IMG/VR virus record: IMGVR_UViG_3300028840_001835
Strand: one strand, 5' to 3'
Origin: a virus
Taxonomy: Duplodnaviria; Caudoviricetes
DNA length: 64,000 nucleotides
The position numbers were made by a program, and so were the translations under genes. Numbering within the stretch: position 1 is the first letter of the stretch; each line of letters begins with the position of its first letter. The notes below the pieces were generated by a model that was not told where the DNA came from, did not search any database, and saw nothing but the letters and a program-made list of their open reading frames with translations. Of this stretch, positions 2,694-47,889 are shown one piece after another.

Positions 2694-3026
2694 TCATGCT
2701 CCCTCCCTCATTAGTTTAAGGTTTGAGAACACCTTCCTCTTATCACCCTTAATGGGTGTCGTGGAGAAGGCCGTGATTATGTTACCAATATCCGGTTCCC
2801 TAAATATGTATGTCTTTATCTCTTTCTGTTTCGCCTTATATAATAATTTTTCAATCGTTTGTTCATCGGTGTTACAGAGTACCAAATGTGGATGTGTCTC
2901 TGTACCATTCATATACATTCTTGCCATCTCTATCGCTGCATGACAAGACTGAACACATTGTTGAGGGATAGAAAGATCGTCCCTCACAACAACATAAACG
3001 TATTCGGTTTCCTAGGTATGATTCAT
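2694..3026 (-). CDS. peptidyl-tRNA hydrolase 2-like protein with in-frame TAG at codon 5
   Basis: ATG AAT CAT ACC TAG GAA ACC GAA TAC GTT TAT GTT GTT GTG AGG GAC; PTH2-like motifs YVVVRDDL..Q..Q.CHA, FREPDIGN.ITA. Confidence 0.75.
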
Positions 3027-3027
3027 T

Positions 3028-3285
3028 TTATTTCACCTTCTTTTTAATCAATCGTATACTTGCTTCAATTTGTTTTAACTGCTTTTTCATTACCTGTACA
3101 TTCTCTGTGCCAAGTGCCTGTTCAAAAACTTCAATATTTTGTTTTAAAACATTAACCCTATCTTTCACATAAGCCGCGTATTCTAATCCACCTTCTTTTC
3201 TAGGCTTATATACGCCTCTCTGTTTCATCACTTTCATTACGCCAGCAAAATCGTCACCATCTTTCAAATAGTTTTTATAGTCCAT
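3028..3285 (-). CDS. putative capsid-internal protein (CTS-like N-terminus)
   Basis: MDYKNYLKD start; TATAAATA at 3314-3321. Confidence 0.55.
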   Translation of the reverse strand: MDYKNYLKDGDDFAGVMKVMKQRGVYKPRKEGGLEYAAYVKDRVNVLKQNIEVFEQALGTENVQVMKKQLKQIEASIRLIKKKVK

Positions 3286-3323
3286 ATTGTCGCTCCTAAT
3301 GTTGATACATTAGTATTTATATT

Positions 3324-3399
3324 TGGTGCGTCCGGGTGGACTTGAACCACCAACCAGAGTGTTTAGAATACTCTGCTCTACGAGTTGAGCTACGGACGC
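3324..3399 (-). tRNA. amber suppressor tRNA (CUA)
   Basis: 76-nt cloverleaf GCGTCCG/CGGACGC-A-CCA; anticodon arm GAGTA-TT CTA AA-CACTC. Confidence 0.85.
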
Positions 3400-3400
3400 A

Positions 3401-3478
3401 TGGTGCCCAGAGTGGGATTCGAACCCACACATTAATTGGCTCTCGACCAACCTCCTCTACCAATTGGGATACCTGGAC
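3401..3478 (-). tRNA. tRNA-Leu(GAG), short variable arm, C33
   Basis: Leu-type D arm; loop TC-GAG-AG; CCA. Confidence 0.7.
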
Positions 3479-3492
3479 ATGATTAAAAGTTC

Positions 3493-3567
3493 TGGTGGAG
3501 TCGAGGGGAATCGAACCCCTATCTCCTGGGTGCAAGCCAAGCATGTTTCCGTTGTCACCACGACCCC
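3493..3567 (-). tRNA. tRNA-Ala(UGC)
   Basis: G3:U70, loop CT-TGC-AC, CCA. Confidence 0.92.
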
Positions 3568-3611
3568 TTTAATTTTATTTATATCTAACATGAATGGATT
3601 GGTTTACTGTT

Positions 3612-4028
3612 CTATTTGATTTTCACTTTTCTAGTCTGCGCGGATTCCTTTATAGGAATCTTTATAGTTAGCAGACCATTCTCCAGCTTGGCTTCAAGAT
3701 TGTCAAGTTCAAACTTGGCTCCTATCTTCCAGGCATGGTTGAATGATTTTCTTGTGATATGTCTGGCGATATAGTCTGACTCGGGAATATCCCGGGCCTT
3801 TTTATCGTACTTCACACCAAGGATATCCCCCTCAATGGAAATTTCTATATCGTCCTTCTTCAGACCAAGAGCTGCGATCTGTAGCTCCAATCCATCTGTT
3901 CTTTTGAGTATATCAACCGGGTAACCAATCTTCACAGAACCATCTTGTATCGGACCAAAACCCGTGTGTGATTCAAAAATGTTGCTGAATAGGATGTCGA
4001 ACTCATCCCAGTTAAATAGTGTAGTCAT
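3612..4028 (-). CDS. hsp20: small heat-shock protein Hsp20/IbpA family
   Basis: YPVDI...ALGLKKDDIEI...RHITRKSF...AKLENGLLTIKIP; late promoter 4110-4117. Confidence 0.92.
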   Translation of the reverse strand: MTTLFNWDEFDILFSNIFESHTGFGPIQDGSVKIGYPVDILKRTDGLELQIAALGLKKDDIEISIEGDILGVKYDKKARDIPESDYIARHITRKSFNHAWKIGAKFELDNLEAKLENGLLTIKIPIKESAQTRKVKIK

Positions 4029-4146
4029 ACTTTCCTCCTTGTGCCCTTAGGTCACATTTCAATAATTGTTGAATGGTTATCCAATCCATCCATTCTCTTA
4101 ATGTAGAAATATTTATATCCTTTCGGTAGTATATTTTGGACTTAAT

Positions 4147-4764
4147 TTATCTCAATTTGTCAAACATTCCGATGTTACCTTTACAGTATTCCTTCAACTG
4201 TTTCAACCAGGCGTCTGACTTGATCTTGAACATCATGGGATAGGAGAACTTCTTAGGCCTCTCGGCACCCTTACACACCACACCTTCAAATGTCATCCCC
4301 TCAAGTGTCGAATCCTTCACGCTGTCAACAAAGTCCTTGGTGACCTCTCCTCTATATAGAAGGCGGGCCTCGAACCCAGAGTCCCCAAATAATTTAAGGA
4401 ACTCCTGCGGTGTCATTAACCCCTGCTTATATACACTAACATCAATCAACTTGACCTCATGTATCTCTTTGGTATGCTGACCAAACATTGAATGTTCGCC
4501 TAAGTATTCAAAGAAACAGATAACCTTCTGATATCTCTGTCGTTTGAATATATGATTGAAGTACGGCTCCGTGTTCTTTATCAGCTGCTTTGCCTCACCA
4601 AGAAGCGGATCATTCTCATCTAGTAATCTCCTCCGGGAACCAAACTTCCAGAATCCTTTTCTATGATCCCACTCCGCACGAACATTAGAACCATCGAGTT
4701 TATCAAACGCATAGACCTTGCCTGAATGATTTTTATAATGTGCTATGGTCATATACTCTTTCAT
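4147..4764 (-). CDS. RNA ligase-like nucleotidyltransferase
   Basis: Motif I DKLDGSN, FFEY, EGVV, FKIK. Confidence 0.75.
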   Translation of the reverse strand: MKEYMTIAHYKNHSGKVYAFDKLDGSNVRAEWDHRKGFWKFGSRRRLLDENDPLLGEAKQLIKNTEPYFNHIFKRQRYQKVICFFEYLGEHSMFGQHTKEIHEVKLIDVSVYKQGLMTPQEFLKLFGDSGFEARLLYRGEVTKDFVDSVKDSTLEGMTFEGVVCKGAERPKKFSYPMMFKIKSDAWLKQLKEYCKGNIGMFDKLR

Positions 4765-4767
4765 GAT

Positions 4768-5040
4768 TCACCTTTTTGATTTCTTTATCTTCATGCAGGT
4801 TCCGAATGTTTTCTTCTTACGAATAAACCTAATCCACTTCTGAACTCTCTCATTCTTCAACAATCTTTCCGATGTATTGTAATAATCACGAAGTTCATTA
4901 TTGGTAAATAGTAGATGAACCTGACCATGACAATCTATACATAAAGAGATCGTTTCCTTGCCCTTCTTACAAGCAGGAATGAGATGATGCTCCGTGATGT
5001 AATCATTCGGGGTCTCCCTTTGGCAAATTGGGCACCTCAT
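4768..5040 (-). CDS. HNH endonuclease
   Basis: CPIC...TEHHLIP...LCIDCHGQVH; start refined to MRCPIC. Confidence 0.85.
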   Translation of the reverse strand: MRCPICQRETPNDYITEHHLIPACKKGKETISLCIDCHGQVHLLFTNNELRDYYNTSERLLKNERVQKWIRFIRKKKTFGTCMKIKKSKR

Positions 5041-5854
5041 TTGGATCCTCCTTAAATAGACACGTTCCTTTTGTGTGGTCGACCCTATTCTCGCAACCAA
5101 GTCCGCAGAATGCAAATACAGGTTGGCCATGCCAGAACTTTTGTCCCTCTATCCATTCCGAATATCCACAACCTGCACATATTTCTTCATGTGAAAATAA
5201 ACTCATCTTAGATTTTCTATTCTTTTGAATATATCTATTAGATAAAACTCTGGATCCAGATCTGTTACATTTATACCATATATCTTTTCTATCTTTTCAA
5301 TGGCGTTATCAATATCCTTATCTCTCTGATCCTGTTCGTCCTCATTAAAGGCTATGAAGAAATCCGTAAGCGAGGATTCATCTGTAATCAATACATCACA
5401 ATAGTTCATTCCAATTATCTCTGGAAAGAATCTCTCGGCAACATCGTGATACGAATCAACATCGATCTGAGGAGCAATTTCAATGTCTTTTTTATTGAAT
5501 TTCTTTTTATCCATTATTTTACCTTTAACTTATATTTGTCTACAAAATATTGTATGTCCGATTCGTGGCATTTAATCCATAAGAAATAATCTGGCGCACC
5601 ACTTAGTGTACAAAATCCAATTTCCAAATGCCTTTCAATAAACTTTCGATGTATTATGGTGAAAAGACAGTCATTTGTTAATTTTTTCAATATATCTTCA
5701 AATTCCATTTGAGTTTTCTGTCTCGAAAAACTTATACTACAGTCCAGAGTATCTACCCACCATTCATAACATCGATCTTTGGAATCCCGAAGTAATGTAT
5801 CTTTTTCTTCAATAGATAAATGATCCGTATCAAAAAATGTATTTGTCATTAATT

Positions 5855-5934
5855 TGGAAGCGGGGGCCGGAATCGAACCTGACCATAAGTCCGGGCTTAT
5901 GAAACCCAGTAGCCCACCAGGGCTTGTCCCCGCA
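5855..5934 (-). tRNA. tRNA(CAU), initiator-Met-like
   Basis: TGCGGGG...CCGGCCCCCGCT resembles fMet; unpaired 1:72; GGG/CCC in anticodon stem; loop TT-CAT-AA. Confidence 0.75.
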
Positions 5935-5939
5935 ATTCT

Positions 5940-6248
5940 TTATTTGTATAATCGAAAATATTTAAAAGCCTTTGGCCATTCCTTTCGTGGAGCAAATACC
6001 AATCCAATCTCGGCTCCATCAAAAGCCATTTCTGTAATGGTAATGTAATTGTTGAATTCTTTAGCTTGCTGAAATTCTACCTCTGATACTTTGCAAGTTA
6101 CTTTTCTAAAGTGATTATTTAACCAATCCTGATATATGGGGTCGTTCTTAAATTTCTTGTGTAACATAAGTACACCATGACCGACTCCATTTATCGCATG
6201 GCCGAGGTCAATGTCCTCTTTCATTAGTATATATATTTTCAATGCCAT
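5940..6248 (-). CDS. second PTH2-like protein
   Basis: KIYILMKEDIDLGHA..GVGHG...W....FRKVTCKV...LVFAP. Confidence 0.75.
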   Translation of the reverse strand: MALKIYILMKEDIDLGHAINGVGHGVLMLHKKFKNDPIYQDWLNNHFRKVTCKVSEVEFQQAKEFNNYITITEMAFDGAEIGLVFAPRKEWPKAFKYFRLYK

Positions 6249-6260
6249 TTCAATCCTTTA

Positions 6261-6332
6261 TGGTACCGATGGAGAGACTCGAACTCTCTTGCTAAGGCAT
6301 ATGAGACCTTGCCCTGTCCCACAGTCATCGGC
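6261..6332 (-). tRNA. tRNA(CAU) Met/Ile2 with miniature D loop
   Basis: 72 nt; loop CT-CAT-AT; D arm CTGT-GGG-ACAG; CCA. Confidence 0.7.
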
Positions 6333-6335
6333 TTG

Positions 6336-6665
6336 TTATTTTTTATTATATGTTATCATTACATGAATTTCTTTGTTTCCACCATCAACCGGAAATATTT
6401 GAACATCAGTATTAGTAATCTCAAAGTCCTGATGTAAAAACTTATCATGAATCTTTTTTTGAACTGCCCTACTAACTCTTTGAAAATCAGAATTAGTTGG
6501 GTTTACCTTCTTATATTTAACAATAACATGATTACCATGAGGAACCCACATAGAAAATCTTTTGGGTGTCATAATGGATTTAGTAAAGGTTTTGCCTAGA
6601 AATTTTATAATATCATTTTTAATGTTTATGGAATTACCTTCCCGTAAATACTCTTTCCAACTCAT
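6336..6665 (-). CDS. putative capsid-internal protein (CTS-like)
   Basis: MSWKEYLRE start. Confidence 0.6.
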   Translation of the reverse strand: MSWKEYLREGNSINIKNDIIKFLGKTFTKSIMTPKRFSMWVPHGNHVIVKYKKVNPTNSDFQRVSRAVQKKIHDKFLHQDFEITNTDVQIFPVDGGNKEIHVMITYNKK

Positions 6666-6701
6666 AATGACTCCTATAGTTAATAAAATCCTTTTAACTA
6701 T

Positions 6702-7313
6702 TTAGAATTTGAAATCCTCTCTTATCTGTTTCACGCAATCATCTATGGTATAAAAACTTTTCACTTGACCGTTATTTGAAATCTGACTTGCAAACAACAG
6801 GGTCGAGTTTGCGTTAGTGTTTTTATCATCCGGAAGTATAAGATATATTGGAATTCGAAATAGGAACGCAAATGTGACCTCTATAATCGTTCCGACCATC
6901 TTTGACTCCTTTGGAACATGAGCCACAATGAAGTCAGACCTTACCACGGCCTCACTGTCTCCCCAGTATTGTATCTTCTCAGCATAGTTACCGTCCACGT
7001 ATTTTCTCATCCTGAGATTTCCAAGGAGCTGAATTAGATCCGTGTTCTGTGAGATGGTACCGAACCAAATTCTCCACATCTCATTGAAAAAGATATCCCA
7101 CTGTCCAGCTCGTTTAAGATTCTTTATTCTCTCAATCTGCTCAGTGACCTCCAGACCTCCTTTTTCAGATTCCTGTACAACAGGATTGTATATCATGAGG
7201 TCTGGGTGTTTTAGTTTCTCAGTTATCTCATCTCGCCATCCAGTCATGTCCTCGGTTGTGGAGAACTCCATCGATCCTGCAAGATATGTGGTATACTTGA
7301 ATCTCTTTTTCAT
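6702..7313 (-). CDS. nucleoside 2-deoxyribosyltransferase-like protein
   Basis: YLAGSM...WR...YNP...D...V.RSDFIVA...GTIIEV.FA....P. Confidence 0.8.
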   Translation of the reverse strand: MKKRFKYTTYLAGSMEFSTTEDMTGWRDEITEKLKHPDLMIYNPVVQESEKGGLEVTEQIERIKNLKRAGQWDIFFNEMWRIWFGTISQNTDLIQLLGNLRMRKYVDGNYAEKIQYWGDSEAVVRSDFIVAHVPKESKMVGTIIEVTFAFLFRIPIYLILPDDKNTNANSTLLFASQISNNGQVKSFYTIDDCVKQIREDFKF

Positions 7314-7564
7314 TATACATCTCCGTTCATTAATCTGGCTTCATTCTCTCTGGCGTCTAGCCTTCGTCTACGAAACTCGTCCGCACAATGTGCCGCGGCG
7401 TATACCGTGTCATGTAAATCGGAGTACCTCTCCTCACGGTCGGCCATATATAACTGCATCAATCTATATATGCAAAATTCAAGCTCACCTTTACTTTTCA
7501 TTCTTGGGAGCTTGTCAAGAACAGATTGAAATTTTGATCTATCATTCTGATCAATATAAGGCAT
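7313..7564 (-). CDS. conserved phage hypothetical protein (MPYI...GEL...EFRRR...NGDV)
   Basis: Recognisable phage family pattern. Confidence 0.7.
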   Translation of the reverse strand: MPYIDQNDRSKFQSVLDKLPRMKSKGELEFCIYRLMQLYMADREERYSDLHDTVYAAAHCADEFRRRRLDARENEARLMNGDV

Positions 7565-7577
7565 ACAATCTCCTTAG

Positions 7578-7751
7578 TTAAACCTTGACTCCCCTCTTAT
7601 CGAAGGTACCACACTTACACTCAGCGACCATCTTCCTATTACCAATGGTCACCTTCAAGATCCATTTCTTGAATTCGCCGCAAGCGGGGCAGAGATTTTT
7701 TCTCTCCGCCCCTCTAGCTGCAGGGTTGTTTTTACTTCCTCTTGTTCCCAT
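7578..7751 (-). CDS. small zinc-ribbon protein (57 aa)
   Basis: MGTRGSKNNPAARGAERKNLCPACG...ECKCG; below ORF cutoff. Confidence 0.7.
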   Translation of the reverse strand: MGTRGSKNNPAARGAERKNLCPACGEFKKWILKVTIGNRKMVAECKCGTFDKRGVKV

Positions 7752-7765
7752 ATTACCCTTTTAAG

Positions 7766-8212
7766 TTAAAATTCGATCTTTGGTTTGTCCTCTTCCTTGA
7801 AGTCCTTTAAGCACTTGCCACTATTCACCACCTTCCCTATTGCTGTCTTTGTCCGATACATGAATCGCATCATACGGAGCAAGATGATGTACATAGAAAC
7901 TAACAAGACCCCTGGCCATGCGCCCATCATGACTATTGCCCCCACGCTATATGCAAGAAATACAAACTCCATGTCAACTGTCTGACAGAAATTCGGTCTC
8001 TGGAACTCCTCCAATGTTGCTATCATATTCGGAGTGAACACCTTCTGAAAGAACTTGTGAAATGGATATATCACCGTTGGTCTCTTGTATGGCTTGTCCT
8101 TGATGAAGGACAGATTCCATGCCACGAATAGAGAAAGAAGGATAAAGATCACAACGGCCACCAACGGAGCGGCGCATAATGCACCTATCGTGTAATACAA
8201 TGCTTCAGTCAT
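7766..8212 (-). CDS. membrane protein, KPK(I/L) family paralog 1
   Basis: 2-3 TM; C-terminal LRMMRF.YR.K.AIGK.V..GKCL.D..E.DKPKIEF. Confidence 0.8.
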   Translation of the reverse strand: MTEALYYTIGALCAAPLVAVVIFILLSLFVAWNLSFIKDKPYKRPTVIYPFHKFFQKVFTPNMIATLEEFQRPNFCQTVDMEFVFLAYSVGAIVMMGAWPGVLLVSMYIILLRMMRFMYRTKTAIGKVVNSGKCLKDFKEEDKPKIEF

Positions 8213-8226
8213 ACCTTTCCTTTCAT

Positions 8227-8652
8227 TTAGAAATTAAGTTTAGGTTTGTCCGCCTCGGTGTATTCAGCAAGGCACTTCTTACCATTGACCAGCTTCATCA
8301 GACCTTTCTTCAAGCGGAAGGAGAACCTGAGCATTCTGAGCATTGTGTAATACACACATCCTATTCCTGTCACGGGCCAGAACAATCCTCCAAAGATCGA
8401 TGGCATCAGAATCATGGCGCTGAAGTTACCGTAATCATTATCCTCGAACAGCTCATATTTGATCTCACTGTCGCCGAACGACTTCGCCAGGCTGTTGTAC
8501 ATGGCCACTATGATCTTGGGCCACCTGAACCTTCTCTCGTCAATGTAAGTCATGTTCCATTCAACAAACAGAAGCAGTAATGATAATAACCAGAGTGCCA
8601 CCCCTGGGGCGGCGCAGATGGCAGCGATGATAAAATAGAATCCAAGAGTCAT
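8227..8652 (-). CDS. membrane protein, KPK(I/L) family paralog 2
   Basis: Same C-terminal motif (KKCLAEYTEADKPKLNF). Confidence 0.8.
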   Translation of the reverse strand: MTLGFYFIIAAICAAPGVALWLLSLLLLFVEWNMTYIDERRFRWPKIIVAMYNSLAKSFGDSEIKYELFEDNDYGNFSAMILMPSIFGGLFWPVTGIGCVYYTMLRMLRFSFRLKKGLMKLVNGKKCLAEYTEADKPKLNF

Positions 8653-10816: not shown

Positions 10817-11929
10817 TTATTTATAAATCAAAGAAGGAGTTTCCTCAGACCTAAATCGTATCACCTTATATGCCCCCAATTTAGTCTGAATAGCCTCCAC
10901 AAACTCATCCTCACTTCCAAATTCCTTCAATTCACCATTCTCCGTGAATCTCCATTCTCCCTCGACATGATCCAGGCAGGTGATCACCAGCTTGGAGAAA
11001 ACATTCGTCCTTAGACAATCATCGGACTCGATTGCATATCTCAACAGATCAAGATCAAGAACTGTCTTACGAAACTCACCCTGATACTCATGCATCTGGT
11101 TGGTCTCGTTTGGGTTGTCCTTTATATCATGATCTATGTGCTCATTTGTCATCGGGCCATTTCCATGCCGTGTCTGATATGCCCGGGTCACCATGTATAT
11201 ATCACGGCCTTCAAGTATCCTATCTGCGTCCTCGATCATCTTTAGAATATTCTTTGTACCCGTGTTTGATCTCGTCACGTGCGGGAAGAACCCTATATCC
11301 TTGTCGAGCAGCAACCCCTGCGAACCCTCAAAGACCTTCTCTCCGTCTGGCATCTCTGCGTTCATCGTTATCCACATTGGCATTAAATCTTCCAATGTAT
11401 CGACCGCTTTATAAAACTCACCAAGGTCCAGATCCTCGAATCCATAATACTTCTGAATCAGGTTCATCTTAATCTTAAGGACCGATGTATTAAACAGGTC
11501 CTTGAACCGTAGAGAGTAAAAGTTCTCCTCCCTCTCTATAGTCGCACCAAACCCGACCCCACAGGTTCCATGTTCCTTAGTCAATGCGCTGTGTTGATTA
11601 AAATGCCTATCAAAAGGTGTCGTTATAGGGCAGTCGGGGTGTATGGTCATATATGGGTCAGCCCCTTTAGCCTTCAGCACATGAAACTCGGTTATTAATG
11701 CCTCGGGATCGACTGTGCAGAATCTCGACCAGTAAGTGGGAATCCCACTCAATGTACCAGAACCGAAATTCGAGAACACATGGCGAACACCATCACGCAC
11801 GACGGTATGCCCTGCCTGGCTCCCTCCCGAGAACCTTACAACAACTGGGCTCTGGGCCTCAGAGCAAAGGTAGTCCGTGAGGATACCCTTGCCCGAGTCA
11901 CCAAAACCTAAGTCTATGACAGCCTTCAT
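10817..11929 (-). CDS. divergent adenylosuccinate synthetase-like (PurA-fold) protein
   Basis: GDSGKG, GGSQAGHT, EGSQGLLLD, PHVTRSNT, RAYQTRHGNGP. Confidence 0.88.
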   Translation of the reverse strand: MKAVIDLGFGDSGKGILTDYLCSEAQSPVVVRFSGGSQAGHTVVRDGVRHVFSNFGSGTLSGIPTYWSRFCTVDPEALITEFHVLKAKGADPYMTIHPDCPITTPFDRHFNQHSALTKEHGTCGVGFGATIEREENFYSLRFKDLFNTSVLKIKMNLIQKYYGFEDLDLGEFYKAVDTLEDLMPMWITMNAEMPDGEKVFEGSQGLLLDKDIGFFPHVTRSNTGTKNILKMIEDADRILEGRDIYMVTRAYQTRHGNGPMTNEHIDHDIKDNPNETNQMHEYQGEFRKTVLDLDLLRYAIESDDCLRTNVFSKLVITCLDHVEGEWRFTENGELKEFGSEDEFVEAIQTKLGAYKVIRFRSEETPSLIYK

Positions 11930-19351: not shown

Positions 19352-19427
19352 TGGCTGGCAGGGAGGGCTTCGAACCCCCATCTTCCCGGTTAACAGCCGA
19401 GCGCATTACCAGTTATACTACCTGCCA
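19352..19427 (-). tRNA. tRNA-Asn(GUU)
   Basis: Loop CT-GTT-AA, G73, CCA. Confidence 0.92.
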
Positions 19428-19577
19428 TTTATTATATATATAATTCTAGGAGGTTTTATGTTTGAACACGCTAATGAGATAACCCCTCAGCTTCCAACCC
19501 AGAAAAAAACCAACCAGAAGAGCTATCAGTAATGGTAGCATTTTTATCCTTTCTGTTTAGTCAAGCATATTTGATTA

Positions 19578-19606
19578 ATTGTACTATACTTTTAAACCGC
19601 TGTCAA
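19578..19606 (-). promoter_or_regulatory. sigma70-type promoter heading the tRNA array
   Basis: TTGACA-N17-TACAAT. Confidence 0.8.
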
Positions 19607-19644
19607 GTATTTTTTTAAATTTATTGGACTTTTATTTTAGAAAA

Positions 19645-19678
19645 CAAAAGAAAAGTCCGGGAATTACCTCCCCGGACT
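19645..19678 (-). terminator. intrinsic terminator
   Basis: AGTCCGGG-gaggtaatt-CCCGGACT then TTTCTTTT. Confidence 0.8.
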
Positions 19679-19990
19679 CATCTCCCAATAAAGATTATTC
19701 TTATACAATGGCACCTTAAACCTAGGAGAACAACTTGGTGAAGGGTGTTTTTAAACCTTTGGTTTATAGCGCCCGTCCTTCTATATCGTATTATTAATTC
19801 CCTACCTCCCTGATGCTATCCATCTATAATTTAGTTCTCAGAGCCCCGACCAACTACATGGCACCGGGGTTGTTCTGAAAGACAGTAAAAAGGATTATCC
19901 GGAACCCCTAGATACTATCTACTTGTTGGGACTGGTGGGAAACCAACACCGTTGTTGACTCCTATTTCACATACGTTAATATATGAAACT
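19645..19990 (-). ncRNA. candidate ~340-nt structured ncRNA
   Basis: ORF-free; TATAAATA at 19997-20004; terminator; long-range pairings. Confidence 0.55.
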
Positions 19991-19999
19991 CTATTTTAT

Positions 20000-20422
20000 T
20001 TATAAATCAAATATATGAGGCAGATCAGTTCTCATGTAACGCCACCTCTTATATTTCTTTTCGTATTCCTGAAACGTCATCTCCCTAAAGGGTATGGACT
20101 TTTCATCGAAAAACCTTTTCTTTAATTTTATGAGTGATTCATACTGATACCCAAAATATACCTGAGGAAGTTCATCAGACTCGTTTCTACAATATCTTTT
20201 AAACCGATCAAATTCATTTTGATTTGCCATTGTCCTTGTCCAGAATATGAATGGGTTCTCGGTCGTCCCACCAAAATCCAAAACAAAGAAACAGCGCCAT
20301 TTTTCCTCGGGCGTATTCCATGTGTGTTTGTCTGCCTCATCCTTGGTCAGATAGAAATAATTATTACCAGCCATCCAGGCCTTGAGATATGCGACACCGA
20401 AAAATCTAACATCTATAATCAT
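20000..20422 (-). CDS. EFFG-family paralog
   Basis: DVRFFGVAY...FFVLDFGG..PFIFW...LK.RFF...IP. Confidence 0.75.
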   Translation of the reverse strand: MIIDVRFFGVAYLKAWMAGNNYFYLTKDEADKHTWNTPEEKWRCFFVLDFGGTTENPFIFWTRTMANQNEFDRFKRYCRNESDELPQVYFGYQYESLIKLKKRFFDEKSIPFREMTFQEYEKKYKRWRYMRTDLPHIFDL

Positions 20423-20437
20423 TCAAAATCCTTTCAC

Positions 20438-20869
20438 TCAAACATGCGGAACCGTGTTTTGACAGAAATCCAATTTCTTATATCTCCTCTCCCATTCTTT
20501 AATGGTGAGATTCCTAATCGGTACATCTTTTGTGCCAAACAATTTGAGTTTTAGTTCCATTATCATTTTCTCTACGTTACTAAATTTGCTATAACATTTA
20601 TGTATCTTATCACGATTGATCAATGCAACGCCCGCATTCTTACAGATGTTTCTCATCTTCTTTATAGTACCTGGCGTTCTATATCTCATCGACCAGAACA
20701 GATGTGGTTGTGTTGTTCCGGCACCAAAATCCATAACAAAATAACAGTACCAATACTTCTTAAAAGCAGGACCTTCTTGCTTGTCAGATACATCCTTGCC
20801 AGCCCAGGCATTCTGCGATGCCCAACACTCTAGGATTGCCAGACCAAAAAACTCAACATCTATCTTCAT
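20438..20869 (-). CDS. EFFG-family paralog
   Basis: DVEFFGLA...YFVMDFG...HLFW...LKLKLFG...PI. Confidence 0.75.
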   Translation of the reverse strand: MKIDVEFFGLAILECWASQNAWAGKDVSDKQEGPAFKKYWYCYFVMDFGAGTTQPHLFWSMRYRTPGTIKKMRNICKNAGVALINRDKIHKCYSKFSNVEKMIMELKLKLFGTKDVPIRNLTIKEWERRYKKLDFCQNTVPHV

Positions 20870-20885
20870 TTGAAAAACCTTTCAC

Positions 20886-21332
20886 TTAAATTTCATTTGG
20901 TATTTTCTGCATTGTATCTCTTAAATTTCTATACCTATTTAACCATTCATCCTTGGTCAGATATTTTATAGGTATTGGTTCGTTTCCAAATTTCATCTTT
21001 AAGGTCGTCACCATTTTCTCTGCGATGGAAAGCTTGCCTTGTGTATTCAATGATCTCTGATTCATTAATGCCAACCCCGGGTTCTCACATATGGCGATTA
21101 ATTTCCTTACCGGATCTTGATTGGCGTACTTCTTTGACCAGAACAATATAGGGCTCTTGGTATTCCTTCCAAGATCCAGAACAAAATAACAACGACTAAT
21201 CACCTGAATCGGACCATAGTAATTATGTTTATGCTGTTCAGCACTCTCCTCTGTATCATAAACCTCATAATTACCAAACTGACCATATCCTTTATATATG
21301 GCAAACCCAAAAAACTCAACGTCTAAATTCAT
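20886..21332 (-). CDS. EFFG-family paralog
   Basis: DVEFFGFA...YFVLDLG...PILFW...LKMKFG..PIPI. Confidence 0.75.
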   Translation of the reverse strand: MNLDVEFFGFAIYKGYGQFGNYEVYDTEESAEQHKHNYYGPIQVISRCYFVLDLGRNTKSPILFWSKKYANQDPVRKLIAICENPGLALMNQRSLNTQGKLSIAEKMVTTLKMKFGNEPIPIKYLTKDEWLNRYRNLRDTMQKIPNEI

Positions 21333-24964: not shown

Positions 24965-25361
24965 CCGTTCTGTTCTTTCAATGTTGGTTGTAAACCTTGA
25001 CTATATGCCACATTCAAGAGATACATATACTCTGTCCATATTGTCTTGGGTTTCCATGCATCTGCAGACAACCACGGCGTTCTATTACAACCAACTCTAC
25101 CAGTGTCCAAACGAATAGGACAACCAATACAATGATCTTTATTGGATATATTCTGGTCATGCACAAACACGTTACAATAAGCACAATCCTCACCGCGTTT
25201 TGAGAATCCACCATTAACGGTTGACCAGAGCTTAACCTCGCAACCCGTCTCCTTCGCCTCTTCGGAGAGAATCACATTTCTTCTCCAATGTTTGAGAACC
25301 CTACGGGTAAGAGAACGCATTCTGCGTTCCCCTACCTTTCGCGGCTTTTTTGTTTTATCCT

Positions 25362-25658
25362 TCATTCCCATCCCCATGCTCTTTGAGCACGCCAGGCGCT
25401 ATCATTACAATTCGGTTTCAACCTAATCGGCTCCATGGTCTCAAACCCGAATATGATTACCGGGGCCACTATGGTCTCGACCAGGATGACGCCCCAGACG
25501 ATGTTACCAATAGATGCCGAATAATCGACACAGTCCGATCTGTACTCTCCAGAATCGAACAGGCCATAGGTCTCATACTTGAAACCATCAAGCACCTTTG
25601 GATCGGCGCATGCTGTAAGCAGGACCACGGCAACCAGAATGGTTAAAATCTTTTTCAT
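25362..25658 (-). CDS. phage lipoprotein
   Basis: Lipobox LTA-C; YETYG...NIVWGVILVETIVAP. Confidence 0.75.
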   Translation of the reverse strand: MKKILTILVAVVLLTACADPKVLDGFKYETYGLFDSGEYRSDCVDYSASIGNIVWGVILVETIVAPVIIFGFETMEPIRLKPNCNDSAWRAQRAWGWE

Positions 25659-30290: not shown

Positions 30291-30352
30291 GTTGGCCTCC
30301 TTTCGGATAAAGGGTGGTTGATGAAAAAACTAATTAACTAACTGTTACTATA

Positions 30353-30381
30353 ATTATAACACGAAAAACCCTTTCCGTCAA
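30353..30381 (-). promoter_or_regulatory. leftward divergent promoter
   Basis: TTGACG-N17-TATAAT with extended -10. Confidence 0.85.
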
Positions 30382-30579
30382 GAAAAAAATGGACTTTCTC
30401 CAAAAATAATTAACCCTTATTCTAGACCGTAAACCGGGGACCTGTTTCATTCATCATAACCCGTTGATCTATAAGGGCTTAGAAGGATCGGGCTCGGGCC
30501 CCGGAAATTAGCGGAATTTCGGGACCTTCTAGATTCCTGTTTTTGATTCAAATACCGTGATCTGGGGCAGGTTTTTCCC

Positions 30580-30608
30580 TTGAGGTTTATTCAGAAGGTT
30601 GTTATAAT
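30580..30608 (+). promoter_or_regulatory. rightward divergent promoter
   Basis: TTGAGG-N17-TATAAT; shares TGTTATAATTATAGT with the leftward promoter. Confidence 0.8.
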
Positions 30609-30645
30609 TATAGTATAAACAACAGGTTAACAAAGGAAGGAAATA

Positions 30646-47433: not shown

Positions 47434-47889
47434 TTACTTGTTACGCCACGAGTCCTCAAACATATAACACAGTGCTGGTCTATCATTCCAGTGTTGAGCA
47501 CTAAACCTATCAATCTCTTCCTCAGTAAGTGCTTTGATAGGTATATCGGCATTACCAAAAAACTTAACTTTGTAATTGGCCAACTCACGTATGGCCTTTA
47601 TCTGTTTCGGGTCTCTCATAAGAACAAGGGCCTTTGCAGGATTGGTCCGAATCTGTTCTATCCTATCCATCGCCCATTTTGCCTTATAGTCACCCGTCCA
47701 GAAAATAATAGGTTTCGTTATCTGCTTGGATAACTGAAGATATAGATAATACCTTCTTTTCTTAATCTCTTTGATTTGGGATGCAACATCCCTCCAACCA
47801 AATGGTGTTTTTTGACGTTTGCATCCAATGATTTTCTGGCCAATGATTGTATGATAACCCAGACCGAAGAATTCCACCTCACACTTCAT
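47434..47889 (-). CDS. EFFG-family paralog
   Basis: EVEFFGLGY...PIIFW...KVKFFG...IPIK. Confidence 0.75.
   Translation of the reverse strand: MKCEVEFFGLGYHTIIGQKIIGCKRQKTPFGWRDVASQIKEIKKRRYYLYLQLSKQITKPIIFWTGDYKAKWAMDRIEQIRTNPAKALVLMRDPKQIKAIRELANYKVKFFGNADIPIKALTEEEIDRFSAQHWNDRPALCYMFEDSWRNK

Follow-up and report, generated by a model that had tools for sequence, protein, structure and literature searches.

In phage T4, RNAC and RNAD (species 1 and 2) are late RNAs from the transfer RNA (tRNA) region, and their biological role is unknown (PMC3014915, PMC9697503). GOLLD and ROOL, whose function is also unknown, are encoded by phages or prophages and frequently adjoin tRNA islands; the level of GOLLD increases late, during lysis (PMC12286853). 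Another described RNA, the Polynucleobacter-1 motif, is family RF01718 (Weinberg et al. 2010, PMC2864571). In this study, a candidate non-coding RNA gene was analysed in a stretch of 64,000 nucleotides (nt) from the virus record IMGVR_UViG_3300028840_001835 (Duplodnaviria; Caudoviricetes), and this whole stretch is referred to as the window. The candidate occupies the interval between positions 19645 and 20004 on the minus strand, immediately upstream of tRNA-Asn (19352-19427), the first tRNA of a long array.

The interval may be a gene of its own, encoding a stable and extensively folded non-coding RNA of ~345 nt, which would be made late in infection and act in trans as a folded particle; we give this interpretation about an even chance. 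The features that speak for it are the lack of coding potential under three genetic codes, an enriched and strand-biased late promoter, a strong terminator, the z score of the fold, its strand asymmetry, its low ensemble diversity, and the position in the tRNA island.

Predicted transcription unit at the head of the tRNA array

Genes are densely packed in the window, which is part of a contig of ~202.5 kb. ARAGORN, run on the whole window, detected 33 tRNA genes and a transfer-messenger RNA (tmRNA) gene, all on the minus strand between 101 and 19427, and the island also contains RNA-repair genes and a tRNA with a CUA anticodon (suppressor). The T4-type ATP-dependent DNA ligase of the window has thousands of relatives in marine metagenomes, which are 44-52% identical to it, and the stretch was present in two DNA metagenome runs, one from sediment and one from seawater. 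Both runs may be sources of this DNA, and no RNA run with the stretch was listed, which has no bearing on expression. The ligase relatives, the metagenome runs, and the use of late promoters described below all fit an uncultured marine T4-like phage.

On the transcribed strand of 19645-20004, no open reading frame (ORF) of 25 amino acids (aa) or more was found under code 11; only frames of 12-18 codons with GTG or TTG starts were present. Because the phage carries the CUA-anticodon tRNA, the interval was also read with TAG as glutamine (TAG=Q) and with code 4. Code 4 opened nothing, and TAG=Q opened only one 58-aa frame (19794-19970), which starts with GTG, contains four in-frame TAGs, and lacks a ribosome-binding site. 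The absence of ORFs at the head of the array, which had been pointed out in an earlier note on this DNA, thus held under all three codes. When the 323 ORFs of the window were compared with the region by tblastn, only noise was obtained and no similarity to any window protein, and therefore the region is not a recognisable dead gene. A second stretch of the window, 30291-30645, has no ORF of 45 aa or more and folds weakly (z -2.0 and -1.5).

The T4-type late promoter word TATAAATA was located at 19997-20004 on the minus strand (read from 20004 to 19997), where it overlaps the TAA stop codon of the upstream gene (20000-20422). The window holds 14 copies of this word compared with 4.9 expected, none of the shuffled sequences reached 14, and 13 of the 14 copies are on the minus strand. 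The distance from the word to the gene behind it is 5 nt for tRNA-Val, 8 nt for tRNA-Ala, and 4 nt for the tmRNA; the copies at these stable-RNA genes (2282-2289, 3576-3583, and 10818-10825, minus strand) are 4-8 nt from the mature 5' ends, and therefore the three RNAs would be late and nearly leaderless. The word was also found 15-25 nt before the Shine-Dalgarno (SD) sequence and ATG codon of at least six genes. Further copies stand directly after tRNAs and before SD-ATG genes. The enrichment and the placement together indicate that the phage uses T4-type late promoters and that these stand directly before stable-RNA genes. The copy at 20004 is consistent with this promoter pattern, and the delimitation of the interval by a late-promoter word, as proposed earlier, gains weight from the use of TATAAATA before tRNAs, the tmRNA, and late genes. 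From what is known of T4 late promoters, transcription presumably starts at ~19989-19992, and the promoter motif suggests that the RNA would be expressed late.

At the other end, an intrinsic terminator was identified at 19643-19679 on the minus strand. It consists of a hairpin running from 19679 to 19653, with an 11-bp stem including six G-C pairs and a GGUAA loop, followed by the U-run UUUUCUUUUGUUUU; it was graded as strong and bounds the interval as the earlier note had described. Downstream of the terminator, a near-consensus sigma-70-type promoter (19578-19606, minus strand; TTGACA-17-TACAAT, 11 of 12 consensus positions) serves a 31-aa ORF and tRNA-Asn, and is given here as context only. 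The ORF (19446-19541, minus strand), located between the terminator and tRNA-Asn, has a good ribosome-binding site and encodes a hydrophobic, membrane-like peptide.

Fold and anatomy of the predicted RNA

The minus strand of 19645-19995 (351 nt) folded with a free energy of -113 kcal/mol, corresponding to a z score of -4.30, and none of 100 dinucleotide shuffles was as good. The plus strand of the same segment gave a z score of -2.63. The 241-nt core alone (19724-19964), without the 5' hairpin and the terminator, gave a z score of -2.82, which none of 200 shuffles equalled. The minimum-free-energy fold comprised 118 pairs, 17 of which were G-U, and the minus strand is therefore favoured as the folded strand. 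The ensemble diversity was 42.6, compared with 83 +/- 26 for shuffled sequences (2 of 40 were as low) and 85 +/- 27 for coding windows (2 of 26 were as low). As a control, 26 windows from coding sequence, matched in length, had a z score of -0.21 +/- 1.40. Taken together, the fold is unusual, with an empirical P of ~0.04-0.08, and is supportive only, not decisive alone. The core has a G+C content of 0.44, whereas that of the spacer 19428-19644 is 0.29.

The helices described below were derived from the minimum-free-energy fold and the pair probabilities of one sequence, with RNA position 1 set at window position 19995; all features are on the minus strand. Directly after the predicted start, a 5' clamp hairpin is formed by UUUCAUAUAU and GUAUGUGAAA around a UAAC loop (19966-19988). 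It is followed by the 241-nt core (19724-19964), which is closed by an interrupted stem of ~15 bp (AGGAG..AACAAC..GGUG with CACC..GUUGUUCUCCU; pairings AGGAG/CUCCU, AACAAC/GUUGUU, and GGUG/CACC) and encloses four predicted hairpins. The hairpin at 19881-19919 carries the loop CCGGAU, with the palindrome UCCGGA, a candidate kissing site, at its tip, and has pair probabilities of ~0.9. The hairpin at 19837-19880 pairs UCAGA..CCCCG with CGGGG..UCUGA, and its loop displays the first copy of the box GGUGCCAU (19858-19865). A small hairpin, GAUG-GAUAG-CAUC (19812-19824), is flanked by CUAAAU and AGGGAGG. The fourth hairpin (19740-19777; GACGGG..AAACC-AAA-GGUUU..CCCUUC) has lower pair probabilities, and its AAACCAA may pair alternatively with UUGGUUU at 19941-19947. 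A hairpin of UUUCAUAU and AUGUGAAA is also present. The pairings that had been found by hand (the closing stem, UUGGUUU/AAACCAA, UCAGA..CCCCG/CGGGG..UCUGA, and UUUCAUAU/AUGUGAAA) were all present on the minus strand at the positions assigned to them.

The core is followed by a largely single-stranded 3' tail (19680-19723), which contains the second copy of the box GGUGCCAU (19708-19715), the A-rich run AAGAAUAAU (19694-19702), and UUGGGA (19683-19688). The last of these could form a pseudoknot with UCCCAA (19926-19931), a possibility that had been raised earlier and for which both words are present on the minus strand. The 3'-terminal part of the phage tRNA-Phe (16798-16873; ..CUGGCACCA) contains UGGCACC, to which the GGUGCCA of the box is exactly complementary, and tRNA-Leu(GAG) has six of the UGGCACC bases; this complementarity has no statistical weight and may be a coincidence. 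GGAGG-type motifs occur three times, once in the loop of the terminator, and carry no statistical weight as a hint of mechanism.

Known RNA families and the search for relatives

At the gathering threshold, Rfam 15 detected only tRNAs and the tmRNA in the whole window, and at E up to 10 the region (701 nt and 161 nt) gave chance-level matches only. The best of these permissive matches was L20_leader, with 21.7 bits against a cut-off of 58.7, and it was driven by the terminator. The Infernal/Rfam check suggested earlier was thereby carried out, with nothing at the gathering threshold or of relevance at E up to 10. GOLLD, ROOL, OLE, raiA, T-box, RNase P RNA, 6S RNA, and the other classes of Rfam 15 were ruled out by the absence of a covariance-model match. 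The view that the RNA belongs to no known class was thus confirmed by the empty Rfam 15 result and by the absence of matches to the families and T4 RNAs treated below.

GOLLD (RF01998) and ROOL (RF03087) have conserved architectures with multiple pseudoknots and lengths of ~580-800 nt or more, whereas the candidate is ~345 nt long and matched no model at E up to 10. The remark in the earlier note that GOLLD and ROOL occur near phage tRNA clusters is correct (PMC12286853), but the candidate is neither of them. The likeness to RNAC and RNAD of T4 lies in a predicted stable non-coding RNA at the tRNA region of a T4-type phage, here at the head of the array. The T4 genes rnaC (139 nt) and rnaD (119 nt) are 2.5-3 times smaller than the candidate and close off the tRNA cluster at its distal side, directly next to tRNA-Arg, without a promoter or terminator annotated between them. 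A covariance model of the 241-nt core (model R2) was searched without filters against T4 69000-75000; it found nothing over rnaC or rnaD, and its best score of 6.8 bits was elsewhere. Homology to rnaC and rnaD was rejected, as R2 found no similarity in the T4 tRNA region.

DapZ and MicL are bacterial small RNAs of the 3'-untranslated-region (3' UTR) type, which have an internal promoter, a length of 80-300 nt, and a short seed. The candidate resembles this type in that its promoter lies over the end of the upstream gene, its terminator is shared with the upstream operon, and the terminator hairpin and U-tail are preceded by an open A/U-rich segment, which in the candidate includes an (ARN)3 run. 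Unlike this type, it has a large closed core, and no target complementarity was found within the window.

The Polynucleobacter-1 motif was compared more extensively. Membership of RF01718 was defined by a score of at least the gathering score, 37 bits. The consensus was read from a weak alignment and used for a pattern scan of IMG/VR, which gave 18 loci; of 16 loci scored with RF01718, 14 reached 100-123 bits. The extensions of the pattern loci were aligned, and a scan with their conserved 3' core gave 120 loci. In 109 of 114 loci, two identical 7-mers occurred in the context CUC[box] ... UCU[box], with 11 variants in which the boxes covary; this twin-box phage RNA family, which has the Polynucleobacter-1 motif as its 5' part, is real. 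Its IMG/VR loci (L131-L250) are easily re-collected with GAGGTACNGGNNNACCGCCT, and box variants include GGAUAAU, AGAUGAA, and GCAUAAU.

The candidate shares several traits with the twin-box RNA, namely its orphan state, its dense fold, its position in a gene-free gap of an uncultured aquatic T4-like phage, and a short box present twice. The twin-box RNA, however, is ~400-500 nt long, follows the end of a coding gene, and has covarying 7-mers, whereas the candidate heads a tRNA array and has a single, unsupported pair of 8-mers. The RF01718 model, for which the 14 IMG/VR loci with 100-123 bits served as the positive control, gave no match at E up to 10 on either 701 nt or 161 nt of the region. 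A covariance model of the twin-box 3' domain (model R1; 44 sequences, 147 positions) scored 7.1 bits in the region (E 10), and its best match in the window, 13.7 bits, was elsewhere. Model R2 found nothing in 58 loci of the family. The twin-box core word (GAGGUACNGG...ACCGCCU) did not occur anywhere in the window, even when three mismatches were allowed, and the two copies of GGUGCCAU stand in the contexts CCG and AAG, not in the CUC/UCU context of the family. The hairpin at 19812-19824 has flanks loosely like the RF01718 order CUAaAc-hairpin-GGGAuG, and the RF01718 model gave it no score. Membership was rejected on the results of RF01718, R1, R2, the core word, and the box context, and only the loose order of elements is left.

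Relatives of the RNA were sought by blastn against 50,697 GenBank phages, which gave no match, and a megablast of 10 kb against GenBank phages found only a tRNA-Leu fragment. Pattern scans of IMG/VR gave no match for the hairpin of box 1 and one chance match for AACTAAA..AGGGAGGTAGGG, and a scan of JGI metagenomes with an 18-mer gave eight chance matches. The other contigs that contain the locus represent the same phage, and the one inspected is identical across the RNA, so that they offer no population variation. With adenylosuccinate synthetase as an anchor, no close IMG/VR relative was found. An alignment of the ligase led to 80 related IMG/VR contigs with 42-47% identity. In 60 of these (~4 Mb, including three complete genomes), R2 found nothing at E up to 1, BLAST gave short chance matches only, and RF01718 found nothing (30 to 60 contigs). 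The ORF-free gaps of two complete relatives contained one unannotated tmRNA-like gene, and the others were unstructured. In IMGVR_UViG_3300032242_002454, an ORF-free, well-folding gap just after tRNA-Ile (~142040-142390, plus strand) appears by eye to be a tmRNA gene missed by ARAGORN, with a GGGCUAG/CUAGUCC acceptor stem, the 5' motif GGUAUCGACAGG, and the T-arm GGCAG-UUCGACU-CUGCC.

The upstream protein, P0001, found only itself in a word search; it has two tandem paralogues, and a profile search of 1.84 billion representatives gave 15 remote homologues. Nine contig look-ups from these homologues yielded one syntenic locus, L255 (ENA ERZ26694059 ctg45370, 9.6 kb), with the order P0001-family gene, 280-nt gap, two tRNA-Asn genes, and tRNA-Pro. 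Its gap contains a sigma-70-type promoter, a small Cys-rich ORF resembling a zinc ribbon, and TATAAATA directly before tRNA-Asn. In other P0001 relatives, a PNKP-like gene directly follows the P0001-family gene. The homologue collection suggested earlier was thus attempted by blastn, pattern scans, R2, and anchor proteins, and found the RNA in this phage only. The RNA is an orphan in all the collections reached and is not conserved at the one available syntenic site. On one sequence, it is a plausible single-genome late non-coding RNA gene of no known class.

Several observations were made on the genes around these loci. The three tandem paralogues at 20000-21332 (minus strand; 140, 143, and 148 aa) are 31-33% identical, have no Pfam or PHROG match, and form an undescribed small protein family; a fourth, weak paralogue match lies at 47434-47889. 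In three of the metagenomic contigs with a remote homologue, the P0001-family gene adjoins the PNKP-like gene (KTI12/AAA_33/HAD_PNKP), and in two of them a sigma-70-like gene lies beyond. L255 carries, within 2795-8443, duplicate tRNAs (Asn, Pro, Lys, and Glu, two each) and an RtcB ligase gene, as well as two tRNA-model matches not called by ARAGORN (6348-6421, and 6437-6540 with a long insert).

Weighing of the explanations and significance

If the interval is a stand-alone RNA gene, the late form of the RNA polymerase would start at ~19990 and stop at ~19645, and the 5' clamp and the terminator hairpin would protect the RNA ends. The protected RNA would then accumulate with the phage tRNAs and the tmRNA, with which it would share a common promoter type, and would act in trans late in infection as a binding platform or a decoy for a protein or a ribosomal component. 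Since the complementary stretches detected elsewhere in the window do not exceed 12 nt (E at least 1), the RNA would not act by long antisense pairing on targets there.

Several results count against this interpretation. One of the 26 coding control windows (25300-25650) reached a z score of -3.99, and the fold is therefore unusual but not unique; this control (minus strand, -126.8 kcal/mol) is located inside the small-paralogue array and may be an inverted duplication or a structured element. The RNA and the window have the same G+C content (0.41), so that the RNA does not stand out from the genome mean. Chance would account for about 2-3 of the 13 minus-strand copies of TATAAATA, and the copy at 20004 lies in an A+T-rich gene end. 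The repeated 8-mers (GGUGCCAU, GGGAGGUA, and AGGUUUAA; 3 compared with 1.33 expected, P 0.18) and the GGAG motifs (4 compared with 2.0 expected, P 0.12) are within chance; the two copies of GGTGCCAT seen earlier are indeed present (19858-19865 and 19708-19715) but carry no statistical weight. The gap of L255, the sole syntenic relative found, contains no such RNA (z -1.1, no R2 match), which argues against a widespread class. As neither blastn nor the pattern scans nor R2 found a homologue, no base pair has covariation support. Of the structured late RNA proposed in the earlier note, the anatomy of a transcription unit (promoter, terminator, asymmetric fold, and lack of coding potential) was therefore retained, and the conservation of the hand-drawn structure was left without support.

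The same anatomy could belong to a cis-acting element, either a long structured 3' UTR that ends the upstream early operon at a common terminator, or a leader transcribed late, whose terminator would be read through conditionally so that the small ORF, tRNA-Asn, and two tRNA-Pro genes are expressed late. Downstream of the long run of minus-strand genes, which ends at 20000, no other terminator precedes this one, and box 2, which complements the 3' end of tRNA-Phe (..CUGGCACCA), lies just before it. Moreover, no TATAAATA stands between the terminator and tRNA-Asn, so that late transcription of tRNA-Asn would have to cross the terminator, whereas L255 has a copy directly before tRNA-Asn. However, the terminator is strong, no convincing competing antiterminator helix was found, and the downstream genes have their own sigma-70-like promoter (11/12). 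The tRNA could pair only if its acceptor stem were opened, the box repeat is within chance, and no riboswitch or T-box model matched at E up to 10. A cis-acting role is rather improbable. We also regard it as unlikely that the interval is a functionless spacer, ~320 nt of drifting sequence such as might be left of a lost gene, which lies by coincidence between a late promoter-like word and the operon terminator and whose fold is a chance outlier. Such a spacer would agree with the orphan state in every collection searched, the absence at the syntenic site, the coding control at z -3.99, the non-significant repeats, and the G+C content, which is not raised. It would have to accommodate the coincidence of fold stability, a defined ensemble, strand asymmetry, a 5' hairpin like that of stable RNAs, and a terminator; in addition, other intergenic spacers are far more A+T-rich (G+C 0.29 at 19428-19644 compared with 0.44 in the core), and no remains of an ORF similar to any window protein were found.

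Two further explanations are very improbable. A strongly diverged member of the twin-box/Polynucleobacter-1 family would share the setting (a gene-free gap of 350-450 nt in an uncultured aquatic T4-like phage), the repeated short box with one copy in a hairpin loop, and the loosely similar order of hairpin, CUAAA, small hairpin, and GGGA(G/Y)G. This proposal is largely refuted: RF01718 had no match up to E 10, also when run on just 161 nt, R1 reached 7.1 bits (E 10), R2 found nothing in 58 loci, the core word was absent with three mismatches, and the boxes lack the CUC../UCU.. context. Equally slight is the chance that a small protein is made with the amber-suppressor tRNA, although the phage has the CUA-anticodon tRNA and TAG=Q opens the 58-aa frame at 19794-19970. 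The density of TAGs is very high (four in 58 codons), the GTG start has no ribosome-binding site, and the frame covers only half of the interval and crosses predicted helices. In A+T-rich DNA, an estimated one such frame among six is expected by chance.

A bolder form of the RNA-gene interpretation, to which we attach low confidence, is that the RNA would be the first example of a new class of large phage RNAs, expressed late with the tRNAs and the tmRNA and binding a component of translation or RNA repair. It would then be a functional parallel to ROOL, GOLLD, and the T4 RNAs RNAC and RNAD and would act during the take-over; so far it would be seen only in one deep-branching marine T4-like lineage because the relatives of this lineage are barely sampled.

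As a single-genome orphan without covariation, the RNA adds a candidate and no new principle, and its value hinges on expression or relatives. Its clean promoter and terminator make the RNA easy to synthesise and probe. Phage tRNA islands repeatedly hold large RNAs of unknown role, such as RNAC and RNAD of T4, GOLLD, and ROOL. If the stand-alone RNA gene is real, it would add another, unrelated tRNA-island RNA, in a phage with an unusually large investment in translation RNAs of its own (33 tRNAs and a tmRNA, with a suppressor tRNA).

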